Positions 2-13,190 of a stretch of DNA of 64,000 nucleotides are shown here, piece by piece. The DNA is from a virus: the IMG/VR virus record IMGVR_UViG_648276708_000003; one strand, given 5' to 3'. The notes under the pieces are model-generated. The model was not told where the DNA came from, did no database searches, and saw nothing but the letters and a program-made list of their open reading frames with translations. Numbering within the stretch: the first letter of the stretch is position 1; every line of letters begins with the position of its first letter. The translations under genes were made by a program, and so were the position numbers.

Positions 2-2626
2 GGAGCGGATCAGAACGGCTGGCGAAAGATGATGGACAGCGCCAGCATGACTCTTGCCGATCTGGTAAAAGCGGGCGCGGCACAGGCAGGTGATAACAAC
101 GATATTACCAGCACCAGCCAGCTATCCAGCATCAATACGCCAAAGCTGACAGTCTCAAAAAATCTGGAAGTTGGCTCTCAAATCAGTGCCGGATATCGTA
201 TTGGTGTGATTCGTTCTGAACCTTCAGTTCCGTCGATGACGTTTTTACGGACCGATCAGCTGGGTGATAAGCCGCCGACGTATGAAACGGACGTGATGCA
301 GATTGTTGGCCGGGTTGCGGCATTAAGTGGTGATGCCTGGAGCGGCAGGATCCTCGGTGGCATTACCACTACAAACATGACGCATGGCGGCGGAAAAATT
401 GTGGTAGATGCGCGCTCGTCTACCGGCGCAATTACCGCACGTCTCGCTCTAAATGGCGGAGACGGCTTAGCCACACTGCAGGGGGCTGGCGGACTGGCTA
501 TCACCGGTGGTGGAGGCCTGTCGTCGGATGGTGCCGGACTCTTTGCCGCTGACGCAACTACGCTCCAGCTGAAGCCCAAAACCAAAGACAAAGCCTACTA
601 TCTGCGCGGCAAAAAGTCTGATGACACGCTGCACTGGTATTTCGGCCAGTCTAGGGACAGTAACGATGCCGTTACCTGGGGGAACTCAATCACGAGTACA
701 TGGCTCACCCTGTCAGGTGACGGTACGGGTGAAACCAACGTTTCAACAATGAACTTCCTGAACAGCGCGGTTGTCGGTGGCAACCTTACGGTAAACAGGG
801 GCGCTGACTTTACCGGGCCGGTAAACGTGCTTGCGAAGGGGGCAACAGCGGTAGGCGATCTGACCAATGCCGCGCTGGTGGTGACGGGCAGCATCAGTGA
901 CGGCACCCAGGGAATCACTGTTAACAGCTTTGCGCCTACAATCACTTTTATCGATCGCGACGCAGATGCAGCGGGCTTCCGCCTGAGAGGCGAGGGCAGT
1001 AGCCTGCGTCTCGATGTGGATAACCGGAATAATGGCGTAACGTGGAACCAGAATATCGCGCTCTTCAGCGACAAAGGGCATCTAGCACTTGGCGGTAGCA
1101 GTGACAGCACTGGACGCATGCTGACGATTGGAAGCACAGCACCGGGCAAAGGTAATCTGACAGGAACCACCCAGATTGCTGCAATGGCTTACACTAATCT
1201 CGGTGCAGACGCGACAGTCCGTGGCATTGGTTTTGGTGTCGAAATGTCAGTAGGTGACGGAAAAACCGGACAAAACTTGCCTGAAGTTGTCGAGTTTTGG
1301 GGTAACAGCACAGTTGTTAACGCCAATGCCACCGTAGGGCTAATGTCGTCTTTCCGCGTGTTTGATAAAGCCAATCTCAGCATTAAAGCGGCCTATGCAT
1401 TTGAAGGGATGATGACGCAACGCGCAGGATTAAATCGGTGGAACCTGTATATGCAGGGAACGGCACCAAACTATCTGCGCGGACAGACGATCATTGGCGG
1501 AGTGGATACAGCCCTTCCGGCCAGTTATGTCGCGTTGTCGGTAAAAGGTGGGCTGGAAGTCAGCGATTTATTCAGGGCTTCCAACGCTGCGGAGTTCAGA
1601 AGCCAGGTCAGCATAATTTCAGCAAATCCGTATATCGACTTCAATTCATCAACTGCACAGATGAATGACTACGACGCCCGTATTCTGGTCGATACGACTG
1701 ATGCAACTGCTTCGGGGCAGGCAACAATGAATATCGTTGCCGGTCATCTCAATATCAATGCAGCGTCGCATTTAGTTGGGTCACTTGTTGTTGATAAAGA
1801 TGCGCACTTTGAGAGTGATACCTTTGTCGGAGGCCGACTATTTACAACAACACATATAAGCATCGGAAATATCGGAACAGCTTCTTTTGCTGATAGTCAT
1901 GGCTCGATCAATATTGGCGACTCCGATACAGGTTTATTATGTCCTGATGATGGAACATTAGATGTTTATACAAACAACGTTAAAACGGCCCGCTTTACCA
2001 CGAACAAACTATATGTATACGGAAAAATAGTTCAAGAAGACCCGGATTTCCGCATACGTCCGGTTGGTGGCAAAGGCATCGGAATGCTGCACCGGTTTGA
2101 TGGCTCAAACTATTACATGCTGGTCACAAACCAGAATGATCCGGATGGGGGATTTAATACTCTAAGGCCGTTCAGCTTTAATGGCACCAATGGCGACGTT
2201 CTTATGAACCATAACGTCAACGTAGGCGCTAGCTTTTCCGCAAATGGAAATATCAATGCTGGTGGCGATGTTGTAGGTGGCAACTTTTCAGCACGAGGAA
2301 ATGTTAGTGCTGCTGGAAATCTTTATGCCGGTAATGTGGTGTATTCCGGTAATGGTCAGTCGGTCATGCATGCGGATGGCAATATCTATGGTCCGGTTTG
2401 GGGCGGATTTATCAATAACTACATTGCAGCACGATATGTTAGTGCCGTCAGATTTGCCGGTTTTAAGCAAGGATCAACCTGGAACGGCCCCGGTATTTCT
2501 GAAGAGAGCGGCTACGTTATAACGTCTGCCAGGAACGACAACCAGGACCAATATATCGACGTCGTGACGGCGCGATGCGTTCAGTACTGTATTAACGGTG
2601 GCTGGTATACAGCAGGCTTTGCGTAA
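2..2626 (+). CDS. Tail fibre protein (5' end lies outside the window)
   Basis: Frame is open from base 2 upstream of the Met at 29; Gly/Thr/Asn-rich with T-even gp37-like motifs (GSINIGDSDTG, LRPFSFN); followed by a fibre assembly gene; position of P1 gene S. Confidence 0.85.
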   Translation, partial: GADQNGWRKMMDSASMTLADLVKAGAAQAGDNNDITSTSQLSSINTPKLTVSKNLEVGSQISAGYRIGVIRSEPSVPSMTFLRTDQLGDKPPTYETDVMQIVGRVAALSGDAWSGRILGGITTTNMTHGGGKIVVDARSSTGAITARLALNGGDGLATLQGAGGLAITGGGGLSSDGAGLFAADATTLQLKPKTKDKAYYLRGKKSDDTLHWYFGQSRDSNDAVTWGNSITSTWLTLSGDGTGETNVSTMNFLNSAVVGGNLTVNRGADFTGPVNVLAKGATAVGDLTNAALVVTGSISDGTQGITVNSFAPTITFIDRDADAAGFRLRGEGSSLRLDVDNRNNGVTWNQNIALFSDKGHLALGGSSDSTGRMLTIGSTAPGKGNLTGTTQIAAMAYTNLGADATVRGIGFGVEMSVGDGKTGQNLPEVVEFWGNSTVVNANATVGLMSSFRVFDKANLSIKAAYAFEGMMTQRAGLNRWNLYMQGTAPNYLRGQTIIGGVDTALPASYVALSVKGGLEVSDLFRASNAAEFRSQVSIISANPYIDFNSSTAQMNDYDARILVDTTDATASGQATMNIVAGHLNINAASHLVGSLVVDKDAHFESDTFVGGRLFTTTHISIGNIGTASFADSHGSINIGDSDTGLLCPDDGTLDVYTNNVKTARFTTNKLYVYGKIVQEDPDFRIRPVGGKGIGMLHRFDGSNYYMLVTNQNDPDGGFNTLRPFSFNGTNGDVLMNHNVNVGASFSANGNINAGGDVVGGNFSARGNVSAAGNLYAGNVVYSGNGQSVMHADGNIYGPVWGGFINNYIAARYVSAVRFAGFKQGSTWNGPGISEESGYVITSARNDNQDQYIDVVTARCVQYCINGGWYTAGFA

Positions 2627-2634
2627 GGATAAAT

Positions 2635-3219
2635 ATGTTAAATTCTGGACCATTTAAAAAATATACACCGAATGTGCCGGTCGTTACTGAATCTTCCACT
2701 GATGAAGAAAAAGTAGAGGCTGCCAGACTGCAGTCGCTCAATGACATGAATATCATTTTTGTCCGATGCAAAAGCGGTCAGGACTGGTATGAGTCGCAAA
2801 AACTGTATTCACCAGACACGATGAAAATTGTGTACGACGAAGCAGGTCGGGTAGTTAGCTTTGACACGGACGCTTCAAAGCTGTGGCCGATCAACTGCTG
2901 GGTGGCAGAGGTGGCCGCTTCGGATATTCCAGACGGCATGGATAGATTAGGCGGGTGGGTTTACCGTAATGGCAAGGTAGTGGCTTATAAACACTCTGCC
3001 GCAGAGCTGCAGGAAATGGCTGAGCGCACCAGAAGTTCACTCCTGGCAAAAGCGCGAGCCTTTATCAGTGACTGGCAGGCGGAGTTGGCGCTTGGCATCC
3101 TGCCGGATAACGATAAGGCGCAGCTGGTGGAGTGGATGGCTTACATCCGGCAGCTTAAAGAAACTGATATCGGCAACGTGCCGGAATCTGCCTGGCCTGC
3201 ACCACCAGCAGCACTCTGA
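2635..3219 (+). CDS. Tail fibre assembly chaperone (Tfa/gpU-like)
   Basis: GQDWYESQK..DTMKIVYD N-terminus and W..Y...L...D......WP..P C-terminus typical of Caudo_TAP proteins. Confidence 0.85.
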   Translation: MLNSGPFKKYTPNVPVVTESSTDEEKVEAARLQSLNDMNIIFVRCKSGQDWYESQKLYSPDTMKIVYDEAGRVVSFDTDASKLWPINCWVAEVAASDIPDGMDRLGGWVYRNGKVVAYKHSAAELQEMAERTRSSLLAKARAFISDWQAELALGILPDNDKAQLVEWMAYIRQLKETDIGNVPESAWPAPPAAL

Positions 3220-3266
3220 TCTCCCTCCTAACAGCGCCTCCGGGTGCTGTTTTTCTTTACCTCTCT

Positions 3267-3287
3267 AAATTACAGACTCCGTACCCT
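3267..3287 (+). promoter_or_regulatory. Candidate Lpa-dependent late promoter (lydA-dar operon)
   Basis: AAATTACAGACTCCGTACCCT; same motif precedes four other late genes. Confidence 0.65.
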
Positions 3288-3322
3288 CTCGCCACCTGAT
3301 TACCAGGTGCTAAGGGGGGTAT

Positions 3323-3640
3323 GTGACCGATGTAGAAAAAATGCTCGCGGTTTCGCTTCTCCTGTCTTTGCTGAGTGGCACAGGCGTTTTCCTGCTGGGA
3401 GTGCGCGAATACCGGATCCGACCGACAGTATTCAACTTTACCACCGAGCTTGTGCTGGCGCTGATTACGGGCCTCACGGCCTATTTCTTTGCCCGCCAGC
3501 AGGGACTGGACGAAATCGTGATTTACCTTGCCGTGTTAGTTGCAAGCAACAACTGGCGAGAACTCTCAACCGTGTTTAAAGAACGACTCATTGCGGCAAT
3601 AAATGGCGTATTTGGGTCAAAAGGAGGCTCCGGCCCATGA
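3323..3640 (+). CDS. lydA: Holin LydA
   Basis: Two TM helices, LLSLLSGTGVFL and ASNN motifs match recalled P1 LydA; synteny. Confidence 0.85.
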   Translation: MTDVEKMLAVSLLLSLLSGTGVFLLGVREYRIRPTVFNFTTELVLALITGLTAYFFARQQGLDEIVIYLAVLVASNNWRELSTVFKERLIAAINGVFGSKGGSGP

Positions 3641-4092
3641 TTGATTACCAGAACCTGTTTATCACAGCGATGGCGGCGGCGATGGTTGTCGATCGCTGCG
3701 CCTTTGCCCGTAAAAAAGTGTCTCTGCTTGGATGTGGCGTGGCCACTGTGCGCGGCAACGCGCTGGCATTCCCGGTCCGCCTCAACATTGCCTGCGTGGG
3801 TAAACTTGCAGGAGCCAAAATTGAGTACTGGCTGCGCGATAGTAATGATCCGACAGTGGTCATTTCCGGCAAGCAGCGCACGCTGGACCTCTCACCAAAA
3901 GGCGTGAGCGAAGAGTTTTTGCTGATCGATACGCGCTATCTGGAACCGGGCGAGTGGTCGCTGACAGTGCGCGTGACCCACGGTAACAGCCGCCTGAACC
4001 CGCTTTATCGCATTTTCCCGCTTCAGGATACCGTCACCAGAACCTACCAGCTGAGCCAGTCAGAGCAGGGGGAATACCGTGTCGAATCCTAA
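3637..4092 (+). CDS. lydB: Antiholin LydB
   Basis: YWLRD..P and VTHG.S.LNPLYRIFP motifs match recalled P1 LydB; overlaps lydA stop. Confidence 0.85.
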   Translation: MIDYQNLFITAMAAAMVVDRCAFARKKVSLLGCGVATVRGNALAFPVRLNIACVGKLAGAKIEYWLRDSNDPTVVISGKQRTLDLSPKGVSEEFLLIDTRYLEPGEWSLTVRVTHGNSRLNPLYRIFPLQDTVTRTYQLSQSEQGEYRVES

Positions 4093-4696
4093 GACCTACG
4101 TCCTGCTGAGCTTTGACGAGCTCAACGAGAAGGGGCTGGCAAAGCTGAAAAAGGCGATCGCCACCAGCGGCTTTGAAGTAGCCAAAATCACCGCCGCCGG
4201 CGCAGCCCGGAAAAAGGATGGCGTTCTCACTAAAACCTTCAGCCTCACCGGCATGGACGAGCAGGTTATGACCGTGCAGGTCAACGACAGCGGCGACATT
4301 TCCGGCCTAAAACTGAACGGTAAAAACGTGCCGTTTACACACGTCACCACGATCCCCGACCTGGGACGCCAGCTGGCTGCGTTATTTAAAAAAGGCTCGA
4401 CGGCATTCCAGAAGGCGCTGGCGCGCAAGATGGCACGCGCCGCCGCCAGCAAAGACGACTCTCCGCAGCCAAAACGCGGTGTGAAATCGTCAGTGCAGAT
4501 GTTGGCCGAAGTGCGCCAGCAGCGTGACGCCTACAAAGCGGGTATCGAGGAAACTCAGAAGAAGGCTGACCAATTGACGCGGGATGCCGACACGGCACAG
4601 AAAAATGCGGACAGCTTACAGACCGAGCTTAATCAGGAGCAGGCGATCACCCGCCAGCTGAAAGAGCAGATCGCCCAACTGGAAGAGGCAGCATGA
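4079..4696 (+). CDS. hdf: Hdf, DarA N-terminal homologue (antirestriction)
   Basis: FDELNEKGL..LKK start, C-terminal coiled coil; synteny between lydB and darA. Confidence 0.8.
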   Translation: MSNPKTYVLLSFDELNEKGLAKLKKAIATSGFEVAKITAAGAARKKDGVLTKTFSLTGMDEQVMTVQVNDSGDISGLKLNGKNVPFTHVTTIPDLGRQLAALFKKGSTAFQKALARKMARAAASKDDSPQPKRGVKSSVQMLAEVRQQRDAYKAGIEETQKKADQLTRDADTAQKNADSLQTELNQEQAITRQLKEQIAQLEEAA

Positions 4697-6879
4697 TGAA
4701 TGAGATTTTAAGCAACCGTATGGTGCTGGACCTCCAGAACCGCACACCGGGCGCAGTGCTGGCGCAGGCGGTTTATGACGGCCTGATGACCGGCAGCAGC
4801 GCGGATATGATGCTGGAAAGCGTCACTATCGACGATATAGATCACACCTACCTGGGAAATGAAAGTCTGGTGCCGGGTGCGATGTTTGAGGCGATCAGCA
4901 CCGAGCGCATGCGTCTGGCGCAGACCATGCGCGCCTTTGTGAAAGCGTTAAACCGTGGCCTGAACGGGACCAATATCAGCGCCGGTACTGACGATGCAGG
5001 CGCTGATACTACCGGGCAAAAAGCTGTGGGCGGCGCGGTGATTGGTAAAGTTCGCCGTGTGGCCAGCATACCGGTTATGAGTGCGCTGATTCCATTATCG
5101 GACGGGCAGAGCGTGTCGCTGGTGTTTCACTCTCCGACCGCTGACAACGGTAAGATCCGTAATCAGGATACGCTGGTGGCGTTTCAGTTCCTGATCAACA
5201 AGCGCGACGTGACACACATTGTGGCCCCGATTGGCGGACGGGATGTGTCGCTGCAGCAGGTCACGCAGGCGCTTTCCAACCTGATCGAGAAGAACAGCGG
5301 CAAGTTCACAAAGCAGAAGGATGCACAGACGAAGTTACGCGCCGAAGTGGAGACCACACAGGCCGAAACGGACAAGCTGGCAGATCAGCAGTCTGCACTG
5401 CTGGAAGTGGTGGATACACAGACCGCACGCGTGCAGATGCAGCAGGATAATGAGCAGACGCTGCGCGGCAAAGTCGCAGCCCAGCGCCAGATCAATGCCG
5501 ACCTTACCGGACAGCTGGCGGCGCTACAGCAGGCGAAAGCCAGTGAGCCTGAGATCACGGACACTTTCAGCGATCGCACTATCCAGGTTAAAGCGCGCCT
5601 GAACATGGACGGACAGGCGACGCTGAGCAACGGCGCGACGGTCCGATATCACAGCTATGACCAGGACGGACAGCTTAAAGGCAAGGTGATCATCACCGAA
5701 GCGGACGGGACCACGTTTGAAATGCCGTCCAAATCCAGCCAGGGCGCGGAAATAGGTAAAGCCGCCACAAAACTGCTGAAGGCCTACCGCACCGGCGCGG
5801 CGGATAAATACCGTGTCAGTGCTGAGCCAGTTTTGACGCAGGAGCCACAACCTGAACCGGCGCCGCAACCAGAGCCACAGCCACAGCCAGAGCCACAACC
5901 TGTCACACCCGCAGCCGTCTGGCGCTATGCGCTGGTAAACCGGCCAGTGGGTATCGGCGCGGTACCGCCTGAATATGCTTCCGTTGCAGACCAGCCAGCA
6001 GAAGGCCAGCCATACAGCGGCGTTGCGCGTAACGGCATTATTTCCTACGACCGTCCGCTTACTGACAAAGAGATTGCTGACTTTGAGCTGAAGTTGATCC
6101 CGACGCATACGGATCTCGATGAGCTGGCCGTAAACGTGGCCGACAAGATGAGCGATTACGCCGCACAGTATCTGGAAATGTCCTCAGAAGACCCGGACAC
6201 CTACGCAAAACAGGTGCGCATGGTTGCCCGTAAAAACCTGACTGGCGTGGCCTACCCGGAAGGTGAAGACCTGACCTATTTCAATCAGGCCATTAACGCC
6301 AGATTGCAGATCCTTGCAGCAGGTGAACCAAAGCAGGAGGAGACAGACGTGACTGACGATCGTGAAAACACAGACCCGTTCTGGATGGCGGCGAAACGCT
6401 TGGGCGATCTTGTAGGCTGGGCGTCTGACCTGGTAAATGCCTGGGCCGAAGCGCTGGGTTATGGCAGTGAGCAGATGAAGCAAGCGGCGGACTATGTGGA
6501 GGTTAATCAAAGCCCTGATTATCTGAAGGCTGTAGAAGCCGCGATGATCACCGGCAAGCGTATTCCGCTGGTGGAGGAACTAAGCACCTCTGAGCCAGAG
6601 CCAGCCCCGCAGCCAGAGCCACAACCAGAACCGCAGCCTGAGCCAGTGCCGGAAGCAGACACTCAGGCGCAGAAGGCGATTGATTACCTTCAGGGGCTGA
6701 CTTCGCTCGATACCGACGATATGGACGTGATCCGTGCTGGCCGTACCCAAGTCCGTGAGGCCATTGCCGCACTGACGGCCGCAGGTGTATTCGATGAAAA
6801 CGAATCGCTGGTCAATGACGCCGTGCAGCACCTTAGCGATCTGCTGGTGGCCGTGCAGCGTAACGGGGTGGCCGCATGA
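4693..6879 (+). CDS. darA: DarA antirestriction / head morphogenesis protein
   Basis: DarA-N-like region (LSDGQSVSLVFHSP), coiled coil, DarA-C-like motif (YALVNRPVGIGAVP..GIISYDRPL); synteny. Confidence 0.85.
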   Translation: MMNEILSNRMVLDLQNRTPGAVLAQAVYDGLMTGSSADMMLESVTIDDIDHTYLGNESLVPGAMFEAISTERMRLAQTMRAFVKALNRGLNGTNISAGTDDAGADTTGQKAVGGAVIGKVRRVASIPVMSALIPLSDGQSVSLVFHSPTADNGKIRNQDTLVAFQFLINKRDVTHIVAPIGGRDVSLQQVTQALSNLIEKNSGKFTKQKDAQTKLRAEVETTQAETDKLADQQSALLEVVDTQTARVQMQQDNEQTLRGKVAAQRQINADLTGQLAALQQAKASEPEITDTFSDRTIQVKARLNMDGQATLSNGATVRYHSYDQDGQLKGKVIITEADGTTFEMPSKSSQGAEIGKAATKLLKAYRTGAADKYRVSAEPVLTQEPQPEPAPQPEPQPQPEPQPVTPAAVWRYALVNRPVGIGAVPPEYASVADQPAEGQPYSGVARNGIISYDRPLTDKEIADFELKLIPTHTDLDELAVNVADKMSDYAAQYLEMSSEDPDTYAKQVRMVARKNLTGVAYPEGEDLTYFNQAINARLQILAAGEPKQEETDVTDDRENTDPFWMAAKRLGDLVGWASDLVNAWAEALGYGSEQMKQAADYVEVNQSPDYLKAVEAAMITGKRIPLVEELSTSEPEPAPQPEPQPEPQPEPVPEADTQAQKAIDYLQGLTSLDTDDMDVIRAGRTQVREAIAALTAAGVFDENESLVNDAVQHLSDLLVAVQRNGVAA
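5845..5901 (+). repeat. In-frame PQPE linker repeat in darA (second copy about 6590-6655)
   Basis: Encodes EPQPEPAPQPEPQPQPEPQP. Confidence 0.8.
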
Positions 6880-7271
6880 CCTTAACCGCACTGCAAAAGC
6901 TGGATTTAGCCGACCAGCTGGACGAGCTGATTATCAAAGCCCCGACCGTTAAGGGGCTGGACCTTCTGGATCTCAATGACCAGATGGAGGCGATCATGCT
7001 CCAGCTGGGTTATGGCGTTGCGCCAGCACCCGCCACCAGCGAACCGGCACCCGCGCCGGTCACTGAGCCACAGCCGGAACCCGTGAAGGAAGATCAGCCC
7101 GTTCCCGAAGTTGTTACTGACTTTCTGGCCGGTAAGTTCATCAGCCAGGCGCAACTGGATTTTGTTGAGACGCTGCGCCGTGTCGGTGACTACATCGGCG
7201 TTTATCTGGAGCTCGACGACGCGAGACAACAGACCGCCAGCTGGATAGCCGCCAGCGGCCTCGCTGCTTAA
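6876..7271 (+). CDS. ddrA: DdrA
   Basis: MTLTALQKLDLADQLDEL..LLDLNDQME.IM.QLGYG matches recalled P1 DdrA; synteny. Confidence 0.8.
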   Translation: MTLTALQKLDLADQLDELIIKAPTVKGLDLLDLNDQMEAIMLQLGYGVAPAPATSEPAPAPVTEPQPEPVKEDQPVPEVVTDFLAGKFISQAQLDFVETLRRVGDYIGVYLELDDARQQTASWIAASGLAA

Positions 7272-7276
7272 ACATC

Positions 7277-7300
7277 AACCCCGTTTCGGCGGGGTTTTTT
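7277..7300 (+). terminator. Intrinsic terminator
   Basis: AACCCCG-TTTCGG-CGGGGTT followed by T run. Confidence 0.75.
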
Positions 7301-7315
7301 ATTCCTGGGAACAAA

Positions 7316-8680
7316 ATGCTTAACGAGAAATTACGAAATCTGCTGAGCGACGCTGGCAGCATATTTGCCCTGATCGGGCTGGTGGGCTCACTGCGTAAAG
7401 CACAGACCACAACGGGGCGATCGTCATATGTCGTTACCGGCAAAGGGCAGGAGGTAAAGACGGCGTTTAAGGTGGTTGATGCGCGCCACCTGATTATTTC
7501 TAACAACCTCGACGGCACAATAAACGCGCTTTTCCCGGCTGAGTTGCAGCCACGCGACCGCACGCGCCTGACCAGTAAAGTGCAGGTATCTAAAATCGCG
7601 GGCAACCTCCGACCGGCAAAGCTGACTGATTCAGGCATGAGCAGCCACGGCGCGCCAATCGTGGGCGCAGATAACGTGGTTGAGTCGGGTAACGGGCGCT
7701 CGATGGGGATCACCCGCGCCTATGAGCAGGGGCAGGCCGACGAGTACCGCCAGTATCTGATTGAGCACGCAAAAGATTACGGCCTTAAAGCGTCGGATAT
7801 CGCGCAGATGGATATGCCGGTACTGGTGCGTGAGCGCATTACTGACGTTGACCGTGCGCAGTTTGCGAAAGACTCCAACCTCTCCGATTTGCAGGAAATG
7901 GCGGCGAGTGAGAAGGCCTTTGTCGATGCCGAAATGCTCGATGAGCGTCTGATGGCCATCTTCAATCCGTCCGACGACGGCAACCTTCTGGCACGCTCAA
8001 ATGACGGATTTATCCGTGCATTCATGAAAGAGATTGGCGACACAGCGACCGCAGGCCTGCTGACCGAAGACGGGCGCCCGACGAAGCAACTGATTGACCG
8101 TATGCAGAATGCGATCTTTGCCCGCGCCTACAAAGACGAGCGCCTGGTTAAGCTGGTATCCGAAGAGCCGGACCCGGAAATGCGCAACATTCTGACAGCG
8201 CTCAACACAGCGGCAAGCGAGTTTGCACAGATGCAGATGTTATCCGGAGACGTTCACCGGCAGGCCGTCACCGGGCTGGTGGATGGAGTGCAGTCGGTTG
8301 ATGGTCTCGATCAGCAGGCAATCGCTGCGCTGCAGGATGCTATCAAGCTGGTTCGCCAGGCAAAAGACAGCGGGCAGGCTATACAGGAAGTGCTGGCACA
8401 GCAGGGTCTATTTGAGGAGTCCAGCAAGGAGGCCGAAGCCCTGGCGCTGTTTATCGTGGCAAACAACCGCAGCGCGAAACGCATCGGGGCCGCGTTTAAA
8501 AAGATGGCGCAGAAGATCAACGACGAGCTGCTACACCAGCTGCAGGCGTTGGGGGATATGTTCGGCGGCGGTGAGCTGACGCTGAATGACGTGCTGACGG
8601 CGGTATCAGGAGAAATTGAGGAGGAATTTGGTGAAGGTAAGGGGTTAAGCTTTGCCATTTTCGAGTCTGTCAGCGCGTAG
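7316..8680 (+). CDS. ddrB: DdrB-like protein with ParB-like domain
   Basis: LQPRDR, GAPIVG.DNVVESGNGRSM motifs of ddrB-ParB family; synteny after ddrA. Confidence 0.75.
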   Translation: MLNEKLRNLLSDAGSIFALIGLVGSLRKAQTTTGRSSYVVTGKGQEVKTAFKVVDARHLIISNNLDGTINALFPAELQPRDRTRLTSKVQVSKIAGNLRPAKLTDSGMSSHGAPIVGADNVVESGNGRSMGITRAYEQGQADEYRQYLIEHAKDYGLKASDIAQMDMPVLVRERITDVDRAQFAKDSNLSDLQEMAASEKAFVDAEMLDERLMAIFNPSDDGNLLARSNDGFIRAFMKEIGDTATAGLLTEDGRPTKQLIDRMQNAIFARAYKDERLVKLVSEEPDPEMRNILTALNTAASEFAQMQMLSGDVHRQAVTGLVDGVQSVDGLDQQAIAALQDAIKLVRQAKDSGQAIQEVLAQQGLFEESSKEAEALALFIVANNRSAKRIGAAFKKMAQKINDELLHQLQALGDMFGGGELTLNDVLTAVSGEIEEEFGEGKGLSFAIFESVSA

Positions 8681-8715
8681 GCAACGAACTAATTATACTG
8701 GTTCATAATATGTGC

Positions 8716-8795
8716 GTCAGCTCAGACTTGAGCTGACGGTTTTCAATGGCTGCACATCATTAAGTCTGACCGTCTGCTTTGAGCGAAAAGCGGAC
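8716..8795 (+). repeat. Cassette-boundary element A
   Basis: Perfect IR GTCAGCTCA-GACT-TGAGCTGAC (8716-8737) plus GTCTGCTTTGAGCGAAAAGCGGAC (8772-8795). Confidence 0.75.
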
Positions 8796-8859
8796 GCTGC
8801 CTTTAGACGACGATCGATGATGTCGAAGCGATAAGCAATTATTTATCATCATGGCTTTG

Positions 8860-9366
8860 TTATGAGTCGTTTTCCGAGTCTCGTCTCATAAGATATTCGT
8901 CATGAAAAATACCATTAGCGTAAAGCGCAGCAGTATCAGTGGCCCAGTTAGCGAAACCGTACGACCGATAAAGTGCATATGCGGCATGATTCGTTGTGAC
9001 GACGGAAAGCTTTACAGTCCTTACTGAGCTTGCAGCTTCCAGCGCAGCCTCCATTAGCCCTGATGATAGTCCCGATCCCCTCATCCCGGCACGGACATAC
9101 ATCCCCCAGATAGTAGCGACATGACTCAGCTTTGATGAGGTATTGAAGCTCAAACCAATCAGGCCCTGTAAGGTGTTGTGAAGGTCGAATCCGCCGAAAA
9201 CATAATTGGTTCGCAATTTTTCAGCAAAAAATGGTGCTGGCTTCTGGCTCCAGTCTTCGTAGGACGCGCCAAAAGCGTCCGGATGAAGGAGCAACGCTTC
9301 CAGTCTTACTCTTCTGAAATCTTCTAGATCGCTCTCATTAATGCGACGCACCGTAAATGCTTTCAA
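8860..9366 (-). CDS. GNAT N-acetyltransferase
   Basis: GMYVRAGMRGSGLSSGL acetyl-CoA motif; N..A.ALY..YGF. Confidence 0.85.
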   Translation of the reverse strand: MKAFTVRRINESDLEDFRRVRLEALLLHPDAFGASYEDWSQKPAPFFAEKLRTNYVFGGFDLHNTLQGLIGLSFNTSSKLSHVATIWGMYVRAGMRGSGLSSGLMEAALEAASSVRTVKLSVVTTNHAAYALYRSYGFANWATDTAALYANGIFHDEYLMRRDSENDS

Positions 9367-9439
9367 TTAAGGCTCTCTCTGATCATAAATTTTTCACTTC
9401 CACAAACAGATCAACTTAACATGAGTTTTGCACCATGTT

Positions 9440-9502
9440 TTTATAACTGCCTACAAAGCGGTCTGACATGGAGCAAAGGTGCGCTGTGAGCGAAAAGCGG
9501 AC
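9440..9502 (+). repeat. Cassette-boundary element B
   Basis: ..CTGCCTACAAAGCGGTC-15 nt-GTGCGCTGTGAGCGAAAAGCGGAC. Confidence 0.7.
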
Positions 9503-9650
9503 ATTGACTAGTATACCTTGCAAATCTTACAGAATACGCCAGCAGATATAGTGCCGATATGGACCTGAAAGTCTTAAAAGAAACACTTCTCAGGCTTTGT
9601 CTGACAGATTACTGTGTTTAGCAAAGCATTTGAATGGAATGGAGGAGCTA

Positions 9651-10184
9651 ATGTACTGGGAGTCAGAAAGACTACTTTACAGACCAGTAATTATGTCCGA
9701 CGTGGAAGCACTGTTTCGCATATACGGTGACGAAAGAACGCACGCGTTTAACCCAAGAGGTCCACATCGGGACATCGAGCAAAGTCGTAGTGTTATCCTT
9801 CAGCGAACCGCAAACCGCGAGCTGTACGGGTTTGACGACTGGGCTGTCTCTGAAAAGACGGCTCCAGAAAGGATCATTGGATTTGGAGGCGTATTTGTCA
9901 GTCAGTTTAATGGCCGACGAACCAACAATCTGGGCTACCGGCTTGAACCAGAATCATGGGGGAAGGGTTATGCAACTGAACTTTCCTGTCGCGCTTTGAT
10001 ATATGGATTTGACGAGCTAAAACTGCCTGAAATTGTCGAAGTGACACGCGAAAATCATATCGCCTCTCGCCGCGTTCTCGAAAAAGCAGGTTTGCTGTTT
10101 ACCCAAAGGGTGGATAATCCTGAAGACCCACCGGCTAACCTGATGTTCACTCTGAGTATCGAGCAATGGAGGAGGTTAAAATGA
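9651..10184 (+). CDS. RimJ/RimL-type GNAT N-acetyltransferase
   Basis: ERLLYRP, LGYRL..E.WGKGYATE, N.AS.RVLEKAG; ATG 9651 follows GGAGGAG. Confidence 0.85.
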   Translation: MYWESERLLYRPVIMSDVEALFRIYGDERTHAFNPRGPHRDIEQSRSVILQRTANRELYGFDDWAVSEKTAPERIIGFGGVFVSQFNGRRTNNLGYRLEPESWGKGYATELSCRALIYGFDELKLPEIVEVTRENHIASRRVLEKAGLLFTQRVDNPEDPPANLMFTLSIEQWRRLK

Positions 10185-10223
10185 CAGGCTTGAGGCATGG
10201 TTATAGCTTTTGACTACATAATG

Positions 10224-10242
10224 TTATGAGCGAGAAGCGGAC
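10224..10242 (+). repeat. Cassette-boundary element C (partial)
   Basis: TTATGAGCGAGAAGCGGAC, right part of the second palindrome. Confidence 0.6.
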
Positions 10243-10288
10243 TTGGTATTAGGGCCGATTACGCAGCAGGAACCTGCTCCTCGGAGAT

Positions 10289-10669
10289 TTAATCTTGCTT
10301 ATTCTGGTAAAGATCCCAGCGGTTGTCGTAAATGTCCTCAAACACCACGACCATTCCGTAATCCTCCTCGCGCGGCTCCTGGCAGAAGTGGACACCCTTC
10401 GCCTTCATGGCGTTGTAGTCGCGCCAGAAGTCGTTAGTCTGCAGGAACAGGAATACCCGCCCGCCGCACTGATTGCCGATAAAGTCTTCCTGCCGCTCGT
10501 TTGAAGCACGGGCCAGAAGAAGATTACAGTCGCTCTCCGGGTTCGGCGTCACCACAACCCAGCGCTTGCCAGGCTGAGGCGTGTATTCAACCAGCGTAAA
10601 GTCCAGCTTGTCGGTGTTGTACTCAATTGCACGGTCATAGTCGTCGACCACGATGGCCACATAACCCAT
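10289..10669 (-). CDS. VOC/glyoxalase family protein
   Basis: AIVVDDYDRAIE, EPREEDYG.VVVFEDIY.NRWDL. Confidence 0.85.
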   Translation of the reverse strand: MGYVAIVVDDYDRAIEYNTDKLDFTLVEYTPQPGKRWVVVTPNPESDCNLLLARASNERQEDFIGNQCGGRVFLFLQTNDFWRDYNAMKAKGVHFCQEPREEDYGMVVVFEDIYDNRWDLYQNKQD

Positions 10670-10785
10670 GCATCGTTTTTGCGTTCTTATTTTTGCTCCA
10701 TCAGGGTTCAGATACGGCTGTCTTGAAACAACTTTTTAACACAATCTAACTCTACTAGCTGCATAGATGAGGCCAGAATAATAAC

Positions 10786-10850
10786 GTCCGCTTCTGGCAC
10801 ACAGCGGACTTACTGCAGGCTTAGGTCCGTTATGAGCGAGGAGCAGAAGT
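10786..10850 (+). repeat. Cassette-boundary element D (most complete)
   Basis: GTCCGCTTCTGGCACACAGCGGAC-15 nt-GTCCGTTATGAGCGAGGAGCAGAAG. Confidence 0.75.
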
Positions 10851-11005
10851 TGGCGAAGAGAAGAATTTTTAAGTCTAATAATTACTAGAATCGCTGCAAA
10901 TATTACTTACGCGACTTTATTCCTTAGTTTGATAGCTGATTCATATCTTAGAGAGTTAACATTCATAATGATGTAATGGGGTGGTTCATACGGCTGATTC
11001 TTTTG

Positions 11006-11548
11006 TCAAAGGTCCCATTTTTTCCCTTCCACAGATAGTCTGAATTCCATGGGTTCTCCGCAAATGTGTACAGTTGGAGCACCAGGTTCATTCCATCGAA
11101 ACAGATTAAGATGCCAGCCGCCCGGTATTAATCTTGAGCAATCAATAAGTCCATCAGCACCGTAACTACGAGCAAGATCAGAGTTTTTCCATGAAGGTGG
11201 TTCACCATTTACCTGTAATACAGGTATCCATGGCTTTTTTGAAAGCTCTGGATCAATCCCCAACACACTACAAGCCAGTTCATCATTCTGATCCAAGACA
11301 AATGCTTCGTCGATATAGAGTGGAACAACTACGCGTCGAATTCCGTCAGTCCGCATATACCCGGACACAGCCCTTATTGACCACTCTTTTACGGGACTCA
11401 TATAGAGTATAGGCTGTCCAGGGCGATGATACCGCCCGCTACTTTCTGGTTTTGGGAGATCAAGAACATAAGCTAACTTTTCTATGGGAACAGTGCGAAA
11501 AAAATAGCCACTCATTCTTCTCAAAAATTTCTTGTCGGCCTGACTCAT
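11006..11548 (-). CDS. RES domain protein
   Basis: SGRYHRPGQPILYMS, G.DGL...S, W.L.LF motifs. Confidence 0.75.
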   Translation of the reverse strand: MSQADKKFLRRMSGYFFRTVPIEKLAYVLDLPKPESSGRYHRPGQPILYMSPVKEWSIRAVSGYMRTDGIRRVVVPLYIDEAFVLDQNDELACSVLGIDPELSKKPWIPVLQVNGEPPSWKNSDLARSYGADGLIDCSRLIPGGWHLNLFRWNEPGAPTVHICGEPMEFRLSVEGKKWDL

Positions 11549-11627
11549 ATTACCTCACAGAATTAAAAAATCTGCCTTATACGATGAAGGTAAGATGTCC
11601 GATGATGCATATCCAAAGTTACAAAAT

Positions 11628-11685
11628 GTCTGTTAATGGCACAGAGCGGACTATAGGTGCTTAATGCCCGCTATGAGCTAACACA
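11628..11685 (+). repeat. Cassette-boundary element E
   Basis: GTCTGTTAATGGCACAGAGCGGAC-14 nt-GCCCGCTATGAGCTAAC (second half truncated). Confidence 0.7.
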
Positions 11686-11720
11686 CAATGGCCACACCAT
11701 GCGGCGTTTCTTCCCAGCGC

Positions 11721-11741
11721 AAATTACAAACTCCATACAGT
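11721..11741 (+). promoter_or_regulatory. Candidate late promoter (endolysin)
   Basis: AAATTACAAACTCCATACAGT. Confidence 0.65.
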
Positions 11742-11775
11742 CTCGCTCTTCATAAACACATAGAGCGAAATCATC

Positions 11776-12267
11776 ATGGATCAACCCCTAAACCGTAAAG
11801 CCTTTGGCGACATGCTGGCCTTTTCCGAAGGCACAAGCACACACCCATTAACCCGCATGAATGGCTATGACGTCATTGTGACAGGGCTGGGCGAAAAGCA
11901 GGGCGAAGTCTTTACCGACTTCAGCGATCACCCGTTTGCACATCGCCGTGCAAAAGAGCTTAACAGCCATGGCCTGGCATCCACCGCAGCGGGCCGTTAT
12001 CAGCAGCTTTACCGCTACTGGCCTGCCTACAAAAAACAGCTGAACCTGCCTGATTTTAGTCCTGCCTCACAAGAGCGCTTACTCGATCAGCTGCTGAAAG
12101 AGCAGGGTGCTTATGCTGACGTACTGGCCGGACGTATCCGCACGGCAATTGGTAAAACTAACGATATCTGGGCCTCACTGACCGGATCTCCGTATGGTCA
12201 GAAAACGCATGCCATTGAGACGCTACTCAATGCCTACCAGAAAGCCGGAGGTGTAATTACCGACTAA
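11776..12267 (+). CDS. Endolysin, lambda R-type lytic transglycosylase
   Basis: KAF.DMLA.SEGT, GYDVIV.G, STAAGRYQ.L, DFSP.SQ, WASL.GSPYGQ. Confidence 0.9.
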   Translation: MDQPLNRKAFGDMLAFSEGTSTHPLTRMNGYDVIVTGLGEKQGEVFTDFSDHPFAHRRAKELNSHGLASTAAGRYQQLYRYWPAYKKQLNLPDFSPASQERLLDQLLKEQGAYADVLAGRIRTAIGKTNDIWASLTGSPYGQKTHAIETLLNAYQKAGGVITD

Positions 12268-13190
12268 CAGCCGCGCCAGCCTTCAGGGATCGCATAGTCA
12301 ACTTTTGAGTAGTCGCCGCTTAACGAGTCAACATAGCGGCGGCTTTTTTGCTTCCTGCCACAAGTAGACTTTGCCCTGAACGTAGACTTCAGTGCCTGAT
12401 AGGCTTCATGCAGTACTCCGCCTTTTCGCTGAAACTCTTCTGCGCTTCGTTCGTTCTGCGCTGCTGACGATGCTGCTGCCAGTTGCTGTTGCGTGTTCTG
12501 GTAGAACCCGAACTTTTTCACGGAGGCCGGTTGTTCTTCTGCTAATTTTTCAACCTCAGAATTTAATGCCTCCCCATTTTGTATTTTTCTTTTACTGGAG
12601 AGATCTCTTACTTCTTGTTGGTCAGTTTGACTAGGGGCAACCTGTTCATTCTGACTAGGGGTTTTGTGGATAAAATCGTTTTTAAAGAATGCCTTAGCGA
12701 TAATTCTCCGGACTAAGTTCTGACGTCCGGACGGCTTCAGATTTGCCTCTTTCAGTGCATCCAGACTGGCCCGGATAAAGGCCAGTGCTTTATTAGTAAA
12801 CGTGTACTTGCTGGGTTTGCTAACGCTGTGATTTTTCTCGTCGCGCTGCTCTTCATAGCTGAGGATTCCCAGCTTAACGGCAGCACGATAAGCACGCTGA
12901 ACGGTGGAGATACTGCAACCGGCTTCTTCAGCCAGATTCCTGAGCGATTTGATGATGATGAAATCGGACGTAGAACCGGCCAGATTGCAGGCGAATTTTA
13001 AAACACGGGTAACTGACTTCGGGAGGGGGGAAAGTTCGATAATGTGGGTGAGATCAAAGCCTGTAATTCGGACAGATCTGTGCTCGTTATTTGAGCGAAA
13101 TGCGGGAAAGGTGTTGCCGGGATCGGCGCTATTAGCTACTATAGGCACAGTTGTTCTCCATGAGACAACAGGTGCAATACCTGGCGTCAT
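12264..13190 (-). CDS. repL: Lytic replication initiator RepL
   Basis: HTH (LAEEAGCSISTVQRAYRAAVKLGIL) and C-terminal IPEGWRG match recalled P1 RepL. Confidence 0.85.
   Translation of the reverse strand: MTPGIAPVVSWRTTVPIVANSADPGNTFPAFRSNNEHRSVRITGFDLTHIIELSPLPKSVTRVLKFACNLAGSTSDFIIIKSLRNLAEEAGCSISTVQRAYRAAVKLGILSYEEQRDEKNHSVSKPSKYTFTNKALAFIRASLDALKEANLKPSGRQNLVRRIIAKAFFKNDFIHKTPSQNEQVAPSQTDQQEVRDLSSKRKIQNGEALNSEVEKLAEEQPASVKKFGFYQNTQQQLAAASSAAQNERSAEEFQRKGGVLHEAYQALKSTFRAKSTCGRKQKSRRYVDSLSGDYSKVDYAIPEGWRGC
12312..12349 (+). terminator. Intrinsic terminator after endolysin
   Basis: GTCGCCGCT..AGCGGCGGC followed by T6. Confidence 0.55.
12628..12673. other. Candidate oriL within repL
   Basis: Two TGACTAGGGG repeats plus DnaA box TTATCCACA (minus strand); P1 oriL lies inside repL. 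Confidence 0.45.

Follow-up and report, generated by a model that had tools for sequence, protein, structure and literature searches.

Outside integrons, the gain and swapping of genes at the fixed cargo hotspots of phages, phage-plasmids, integrative conjugative elements (ICEs), and plasmids are largely unexplained. Integrons and the integrase-less clusters of attC sites (CALINs) are co-oriented arrays of short modules that are split by a recurrent site and carry small accessory cargo such as GNAT and VOC genes; many of these arrays come without a recombinase gene, and their cassettes are common to several replicons and genera. In Acinetobacter, plasmids carry so-called pdif modules whose boundaries are short sites for tyrosine recombinases; these sites have a 6-bp centre, and the enzyme acts on them in trans. 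Here, we analysed a 64,000-nt stretch of viral DNA (IMG/VR record IMGVR_UViG_648276708_000003; hereafter "the window") from a P1-like Pantoea phage-plasmid, in which four accessory genes on both strands lie between a truncated ddrB gene (7316-8680) and a lysozyme gene (11776-12267) and which appears to have all of the above features in common with integrons, CALINs, and pdif modules. We consider it probable that positions 8772-11678 comprise three to four mobile gene modules within this ddrB-lyz slot, joined at two classes of 24-bp, double-stranded core sites, with a 200-residue tyrosine recombinase acting in trans as the most likely agent.

Positions 8772-11678 contain five boundary elements, all on the plus strand, which are assembled from two related palindromes of 24 bp that we term the hp1 and hp2 sites. 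The left boundary of the array is an hp2 on its own, with the centre GAGCGA (8772-8795). It is followed by an hp1 remnant of which the right arm alone is left (9453-9463), placed 15 nt ahead of an hp2 (9479-9502), by a decayed hp2 that has lost its left arm and kept its centre and right arm (10219-10242), and by a composite of hp1 (10786-10809), a 15-nt spacer, and hp2 (10825-10848). This composite is the only complete copy in the window, matches the hp1 pattern exactly, and scores 56 bits with nhmmer; its type is present on Pantoea megaplasmids, too. At the right boundary, a recombinant hp1 (11628-11651) and a 14-nt spacer precede half an hp2 (11666-11678) that is fused to the phage backbone. 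The sites at 9453, 10219, 10825, and 11666 are decayed. As judged by their asymmetric centres, all copies in the window have the same orientation, and a degenerate hp2 pattern matches the window four times, with 0.01 matches expected in shuffled sequences; no further copy is found in the remaining 60 kb of the window. An initial annotation of this region, made from the sequence, had described the repeat at these places and in a single orientation and had noted that it fits neither attC, dif nor REP (repetitive extragenic palindrome) consensus sequences, all of which our analysis bears out. It also took a perfect inverted repeat at 8716-8737 as the mark of the left end; this is instead a terminator-like hairpin 3' of ddrB (8715-8738, plus strand; a 10-bp stem, then a T-rich tail) that lies outside the repeat family. 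A terminator scan picked this hairpin and none of the hp1 or hp2 sites, and the 91-nt segment that contains it (8681-8771) is common only to the sister phage-plasmids L030, L031, and L033.

In a profile built on 162 copies (window, Pantoea, E. coli, and further loci), the 24-mer falls into a 9-6-9 arrangement, in which a left arm of GTCCGCT plus two looser positions is followed by a 6-bp centre and by two looser positions plus AGCGGAC. The 9-bp arm is GTCCGCTNN, the second arm repeats the same heptamer in inverted form, and the asymmetric centre reads TGGCAC in hp1 and GAGCGA in hp2. Since the centres of the profiled copies are invariant by selection, 24-mers selected by their arms were used for the class test instead, and 128 of these 161 had one of the two centres (GAGCGA in 68, TGGCAC in 60); the others were mostly one-base derivatives of either centre, with only two possible hybrids. 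Inverted arms around an asymmetric centre of 6-8 bp, the layout of a simple tyrosine-recombinase core site of the lox/FRT/dif type, are thus present. Besides, hp1 approximates the reverse complement of hp2 with a different centre, and the element can therefore be read as an inverted pair of two site classes. In composites, hp1 and hp2 are 14-18 nt apart and the spacer sequence is variable. Outside the 24-mers, AAC or AAT is often found 5' of hp1 and GTT often 3' of hp2, and this extended conservation suggests that the functional site may be nearer 30 bp. Of 206 intra-hairpin pairs, 199 deviated from the arm consensus on one side only, as did 54 of the 57 pairs that would form between hp1 and hp2; either set had two compensated changes. 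Base pairing hence is not the target of selection, and these uncompensated changes argue for protein-bound duplex half-sites and against folded single-stranded DNA (ssDNA) or RNA. An Rfam scan of 8000-12500 at E ≤ 1 returned no match or structured element.

Comparisons between loci single out the sites as places where homology begins and ends. In an all-versus-all BLAST search of the fetched loci, 68 of 133 distinct ends of high-scoring segment pairs (HSPs) fell within 40 nt of an element, the elements plus this margin making up ∼5% of the DNA, and HSP ends heap up at the edges of hp1 and hp2. The segment 8772-9502 is 98.8% identical to P. agglomerans pAR24_C, with the match stopping at the hp2 sites on both sides, and the RES cassette (10884-11641) is 95.5% identical to a plasmid of Pantoea sp. 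JZ29 (L016). Between them, the second GNAT gene and the VOC gene (9479-10847) are 93% identical to a P. ananatis plasmid (L014) and travel as one block. Hence, the original assumption that single genes each lie between copies of the repeat is right as to the position of sites at gene boundaries, but not for this pair, which is split only by a decayed half-site. Plasmids of Enterobacter, Rahnella, Cronobacter, Salmonella, Klebsiella, and Duffyella contain individual modules of a P. eucalypti array, and here, too, the match ends at the elements. When same-class site pairs with a homologous flank were compared, both sides were homologous in only 2 of 73, which means that the sites are junctions and not repeat insertions into collinear DNA. 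A contig from another sample in the Logan assemblies spans exactly 8772-10809 and then diverges. Apparent joints in Logan contigs arose mostly where 24-bp repeats cross-matched and were disregarded as evidence; the contig ends at 8772, 10809, and 10884 alone were noted. As a separate observation, L014 (from P. ananatis PNA 97-1R) contains the GNAT+VOC module twice (6001-7327 and 11082-12408; 99.9% identity), with both copies bounded by hp2 and hp1 and the second adjoining an IS110-family transposase gene; the module seems to have been copied within the molecule recently.

Within the sites, the two arms can follow different relatives. In the hp2 at 9479-9502, the left arm GTGCGCTGT is shared with the relative of the upstream cassette (L015), and the right arm plus the downstream flank with that of the downstream cassette (L014), which puts the crossover inside GAGCGA. 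The hp1 at 11628-11651 has its left arm GTCTGTTAA in common with the relative of the RES cassette (L016) and is, from TGGCAC onward, indistinguishable from backbone sequence of pEuc3 and pFC61912-B_D, two sister phage-plasmids. With the same two sisters, the hp2 at 8772 shares its left arm GTCTGCT and the upstream flank, its downstream flank being shared with the GNAT cassette of pAR24_C. The junctions at 9479 and 11628 accordingly map within the centre and that at 8772 between position 4 and the end of the site; at the right end, the half hp2 meets the phage backbone after GAGC, again inside the centre. No target-site duplication was seen at the resolved junctions of the window. The same pattern emerged from pairs of sites in general: those with homology only upstream (n = 32) had 0.84 mismatches in the left and 2.28 in the right arm, those with homology only downstream (n = 39) had 1.56 and 0.62, respectively, and unrelated pairs (n = 7711) had 2.33 and 2.48. 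Each arm co-segregates with its own flank. These junctions show that strand exchange lies inside the 6-bp centre.

The phage-plasmid is most closely related to circular, non-mobilizable plasmids (87-95 kb) of P. agglomerans, P. eucalypti, and Pantoea sp., in which ddrA, ddrB-like, GH104 lysozyme, head-processing, portal, and tail-fibre genes are annotated. Two of them, the above-mentioned pEuc3 and pFC61912-B_D, share the left hp2 and the right hp1/half-hp2 of the window and hold different modules in between, namely a Vat acetyltransferase gene in pEuc3 and genes for ImmA/IrrE, thymidylate synthase, restriction endonuclease, and alpha/beta hydrolase proteins in pFC61912-B_D. Three other relatives are element-free and possess either a full-length ddrB or an unrelated insert. 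Homology to the element-free L001 and L002 ends at 8659-8667 and resumes at 11683. The ddrB product has 454 aa in the window and is cut likewise in the array-bearing sisters; in L001 the gene measures 2913 nt (1517-4429) and is followed by a small open reading frame (ORF). Judged from these alignments, the array replaced ∼1.9 kb of backbone and did not arise by simple insertion. A megablast search of the region against a phage collection gave a single irrelevant match of 140 nt.

Beyond this slot, 24-mers of the hp2 type (≤2 mismatches) were detected in 36 of the 41 genomes searched from the window's genus, with no matches to reversed-pattern controls; at the level of the order, the strict 24-mer was present in 13 of the 20 genomes sampled from the same GTDB family and in 1 of 281 from other families. 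Copies are concentrated in few co-oriented arrays, mostly on plasmid-sized contigs. The longest array, on a plasmid of P. eucalypti LMG 24197 (NZ_CP045721.1; contig C2 of genome G017), extends over ∼45 kb (229-273 kb) with ∼35 boundaries. Orientation is uniform within loci, with two exceptions among ∼130 sites. ORFs of ≥100 aa contain 7 of the 104 sites at array loci, as compared with 71% of random 24-mers. The modules have a median length of 1.25 kb, carry one gene in 29 and two genes in 15 of 68 cases, on either strand, and many consist of a regulator plus an enzyme. The initial annotation had named two observations that would count against a cassette array, i.e. the same four genes in fixed order in relatives, without empty-site alleles, and an element placed independently of gene boundaries. 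Neither was found: content varies at the ddrB-lyz locus, the sisters holding different cassettes, and the sites avoid genes. Its view of the repeats as boundaries of mobile gene modules is further backed by the homology that ends at them.

A candidate for the enzyme is encoded inside the P. eucalypti array. The 200-aa protein P0001 matches the catalytic domain of phage integrases only (residues 35-184), and R51, K79, H148, R151, H174, and Y183 are invariant in 18 of its homologs. Homologs, which include pseudogenes, were found in 11 of the genus's 41 genomes and adjoin sites in every case. In all ten recombinase loci compared, the gene is located between hp2 and hp1, in place of the 15-nt spacer of the composite, and conservation starts exactly at TCGCTCA and stops exactly at GTGCCA, the outer arms varying by context. 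Layout, centres, and break points are the same around the homologs of Providencia, E. coli (L051 and L052), and marine gammaproteobacteria; in the latter, the genes lie in ICE-like loci beside traF, traH, and traG. The recombinase gene is found in 867 of 5426 complete E. coli genomes (16%), the family totals more than 8000 scored matches, and the proteins of Pantoea and Idiomarina are ∼80% identical. P0001 reaches 15.2 bits against the NCBIfam integron-integrase model (cut-off, 435) and has no IntI-specific insertion. A search of the phage collection with the recombinase protein gave three distant matches only, and a sequence search of the PDB gave none. We infer the link between recombinase and sites from their co-location and shared break points rather than from co-occurrence, since the gene is missing from 25 of the 36 genomes in the genus that bear sites, including the richest (G029 and G041). 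In the search for a co-occurring recombinase, suggested in the initial annotation, a candidate gene was thus found within relatives' arrays; most site-bearing genomes do without it.

Two side observations concern the recombinase gene and its surroundings. Across the ten loci, a conserved inverted repeat, ATCTCC...GGAGAT, covers the ribosome-binding site and start (L019, 8343-8380), and a GC-rich hairpin directly 3' of the stop overlaps the inner hp1 arm (L019, 7700-7740); both are possible expression controls. In three metagenome or genome contigs of marine Gammaproteobacteria (L048-L050), the recombinase is found amid arsenic, mercury, and cation-efflux modules beside traF-traH-traG, with a site of the reverse-complement hp2 type directly before traF or after merR, which looks like the cargo slot of a conjugative element.

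How might modules move? Recombination between two hp2 sites, or two hp1 sites, would excise a module as a circle or insert it, since sites of the same class are co-oriented. The centres of hp1 and hp2 differ, so that the two classes should not recombine with each other, by analogy with heterospecific lox variants, and paired hp1×hp1 and hp2×hp2 crossovers could swap modules between replicons. The presumed catalyst is the 200-residue, catalytic-domain-only tyrosine recombinase. It is not encoded in the window or the sister phage-plasmids and would thus have to act in trans here, much as for integron cassette clusters devoid of an integrase. Such action is at least possible in P. eucalypti LMG 24197, which has both the pEuc3 array at its ddrB-lyz slot (contig C4) and an intact recombinase gene on a co-resident 529-kb plasmid (C2); this isolate is a natural test strain. 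The 343-aa Cre-like enzyme, the only such protein in each of five related phage-plasmids, was rejected as the agent as it is present with and without arrays; we know of no resemblance of the sites to loxP. Whether the phenomenon extends further is, in our estimation, evenly balanced: the dedicated 200-residue recombinase and two non-cross-reacting classes of 24-bp sites may form a natural cassette-exchange system, distinct from integrons, that both stocks and reshuffles cargo slots across Enterobacterales and marine Gammaproteobacteria, be they on phages, phage-plasmids, conjugative elements, or megaplasmids, with the Pantoea array as a recombinase-less outpost served in trans.

Several observations weigh against modules that are moved by this recombinase. 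No member of the P0001 family is encoded in the 64-kb window, which agrees with the initial annotation, nor in five complete related phage-plasmids, and the above-mentioned 25 site-bearing genomes of the genus likewise lack one. Among the loci compared, there was no empty-site allele differing by exactly one cassette. The decay of several window sites suggests that the array may be a fossil, and the recurrence of the exact four-gene arrangement in sequencing runs from 18 studies (see below) indicates that it is stable at present, without rapid turnover. The pairs behind the arm-mismatch values are non-independent and dominated by recombinase loci, the non-recombinase pairs pointing in the same direction. 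Finally, an AlphaFold2 model of the recombinase, based on 18 close homologs, had a pLDDT (predicted local distance difference test) score of 45 and was too poor for use.

Some of these points would also suit selfish repeats akin to REPs, their doublet forms (REPINs), or miniature transposable elements with inverted repeats (MITEs), with gene shuffling as a by-product of homologous or illegitimate recombination and the recombinase as a passenger. Given that hp1 approximates the reverse complement of hp2, the 66-nt unit indeed has the look of a REPIN doublet, or else of a very small element whose ends are inverted repeats; the composite looks like a recombinase unit minus its gene, and most site-bearing genomes have no recombinase. 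We nonetheless regard this explanation as unlikely. Searches for a Y1/HUH transposase, i.e. a REP-associated tyrosine transposase (RAYT; Y1_Tnp, PF01797), gave no match in five site-rich Pantoea genomes, with the control matching 6 of 14 reference genomes; nor are the copies dispersed, as they form clusters in co-oriented arrays, and homology on both sides of a site is the exception (2 of 73 pairs). Exchange points that fall in the 6-bp centre are likewise at odds with it, as are two sharply conserved centre classes, which imply selection on the centre, and an imperfect repeat of 24 bp is at or under the length usual for RecA recombination. If, on the other hand, the sites served another host enzyme, such as XerC/XerD, which act on pdif modules in Acinetobacter, or a different resident tyrosine or serine recombinase, the persistence of arrays in genomes without the small recombinase would be explained. 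Genes resembling xerC and xerD were present in all five genomes checked, with top matches of ∼200 bits, and the module architecture resembles that of pdif modules. Yet the arms are identical inverted repeats, as expected of a site for a homodimer, whereas those of dif differ between XerC and XerD; sites of the same class share one orientation instead of alternating; and the small recombinase gene keeps the same flanking sites across E. coli, Providencia, Pantoea, and marine taxa. To our knowledge, the sites also bear no resemblance to the enterobacterial dif consensus. We therefore see only a slim chance for such an enzyme.

The mechanism originally put forward, in which hairpin halves of ssDNA are recognised by an HUH enzyme or, on folded strands, by an integron-type recombinase, takes account of the imperfect palindrome in each half, and the two halves together might form a single stem of 24 bp in which two mismatches are fixed. 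However, compensatory change is near nil, it is the sequence and not the structure that is conserved, which is the opposite of attC, and neither a Y1_Tnp nor an Rfam match was obtained, the candidate recombinase scoring far under the integron-integrase cut-off. Together with the junctions inside the 6-bp centre, this makes a mechanism on folded strands highly improbable. A role of the sites as regulatory or terminator elements (operators or bidirectional terminators) that have nothing to do with mobility would be in line with their intergenic position and palindromic sequence, but we found no T-tract 3' of hp1 or hp2 sites, the neighbouring genes have any orientation, and homology breaks exactly at the sites across genera, so that this possibility seems to us more improbable still.

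Set against described systems, the arrays lack the defining features of integrons, CALINs, and pdif modules, and only the generic layout of a tyrosine-recombinase core site is present. Where integrons and CALINs rely on an IntI-type integrase with an extra domain, the enzyme here has 200 aa and consists of the catalytic domain only; attC sites combine a conserved fold with a variable sequence and are exchanged at the G/TT of R', whereas here the sequence is conserved and exchange falls in the centre; and promoterless, co-oriented cassettes that depend on a platform promoter contrast with genes on both strands that often have their own regulator. An attI/Pc platform is also missing, the recombinase gene forms one of the modules, and boundaries carry two classes of sites. 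Unlike the pdif modules, with their asymmetric XerC/XerD arms and alternating orientation, the present sites have the same heptamer in inverted form and a uniform orientation, and a dedicated small recombinase travels with them. Inverted arms around an asymmetric centre that sets orientation are common to Cre/lox and FLP/FRT, and, as in engineered cassette exchange with heterospecific lox sites, two centre variants should not cross-react, which would render the flanked segment swappable. In lox and FRT, however, the arms have 13 bp as compared with 9 bp here, and the present enzyme has no N-terminal core-binding domain; moreover, ours is a natural system with long arrays, for which heterospecificity is presumed from the centres. 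With REPINs and their RAYTs, the sites have in common a short palindromic repeat that forms an inverted doublet in intergenic DNA; they differ in the missing RAYT (0 of 5 genomes), in their confinement to few arrays in place of genome-wide dispersal, and in that copies join unrelated flanks. The insertion into collinear DNA with target-site duplication that typifies MITEs was not seen either.

At the variable Z/fun locus of P2-like phages, a defence hotspot, exchange of content by site-specific recombination has reportedly been proposed, in a 2004 study by Nilsson et al. (Mol Biol Evol 21:1), the closest published lead. As far as its title and its citations in PMC9122126 reveal, that locus is likewise a phage cargo slot with proposed site-specific exchange, and it differs from the present one, which resides in a P1-like phage-plasmid, holds metabolic and detoxification rather than defence cargo, and has no recombinase on the element. 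Full-text literature searches returned no description of the system, the texts covered not including Nilsson et al. (2004), and the papers citing Nilsson et al. (2004) and Odegrip et al. (2006) contained no description of the sites. Apparently, the system is both widespread and undescribed. New in the present work are the recombinase-less array in a P1-like phage-plasmid, the long arrays with metabolic cargo on megaplasmids, the composite of 66 nt that represents an "empty slot", and the mapping of junctions at base level. The system may explain gene exchange at the cargo hotspots of phages and plasmids. If the paired sites are substrates of the small recombinase, they would constitute a second widespread cassette system in well-studied bacteria, by which detoxification, acetyltransferase, restriction, and defence genes could be moved between chromosomes, plasmids, and phages. 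In that case, a compact recombinase with short heterospecific sites might be of use as a tool, and annotators would gain a simple sequence signature with which to delimit mobile modules.

As for the cargo and the backbone around it, the truncated ddrB gene to the left of the array (7316-8680, plus strand) matches the Pfam family ddrB-ParB (E = 4.5e-41), and the lysozyme gene to its right (11776-12267, plus strand) is annotated as glycoside hydrolase family 104 in L001, L002, L030, and L033. Pfam confirms the cargo identities given in the initial annotation. The first cassette gene (8860-9366, minus strand) encodes a GNAT acetyltransferase (PF00583, E = 3.9e-12), the second (9639-10184, plus strand) a further GNAT protein (Acetyltransf_3, PF13302, E = 8.3e-26), and the third (10289-10669, minus strand) a protein of the VOC/glyoxalase family (PF00903, E = 3.6e-14). 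The fourth (11006-11548, minus strand) codes for a RES-domain protein, with a borderline score (PF08808, 23.5 bits; cut-off, 23.2). Its own module contains no antitoxin-sized ORF; on the JZ29 plasmid, the small ORF nearest the RES gene sits past a boundary element. In a comparison with public sequencing runs by means of Logan contigs, at least 83% of the words sampled from 8600-11800 were present in runs from 18 studies. Runs with the exact four-gene arrangement were mostly root, phyllosphere, and plant metagenomes, and plants commonly harbour this phage-plasmid lineage with the cassette set described here.

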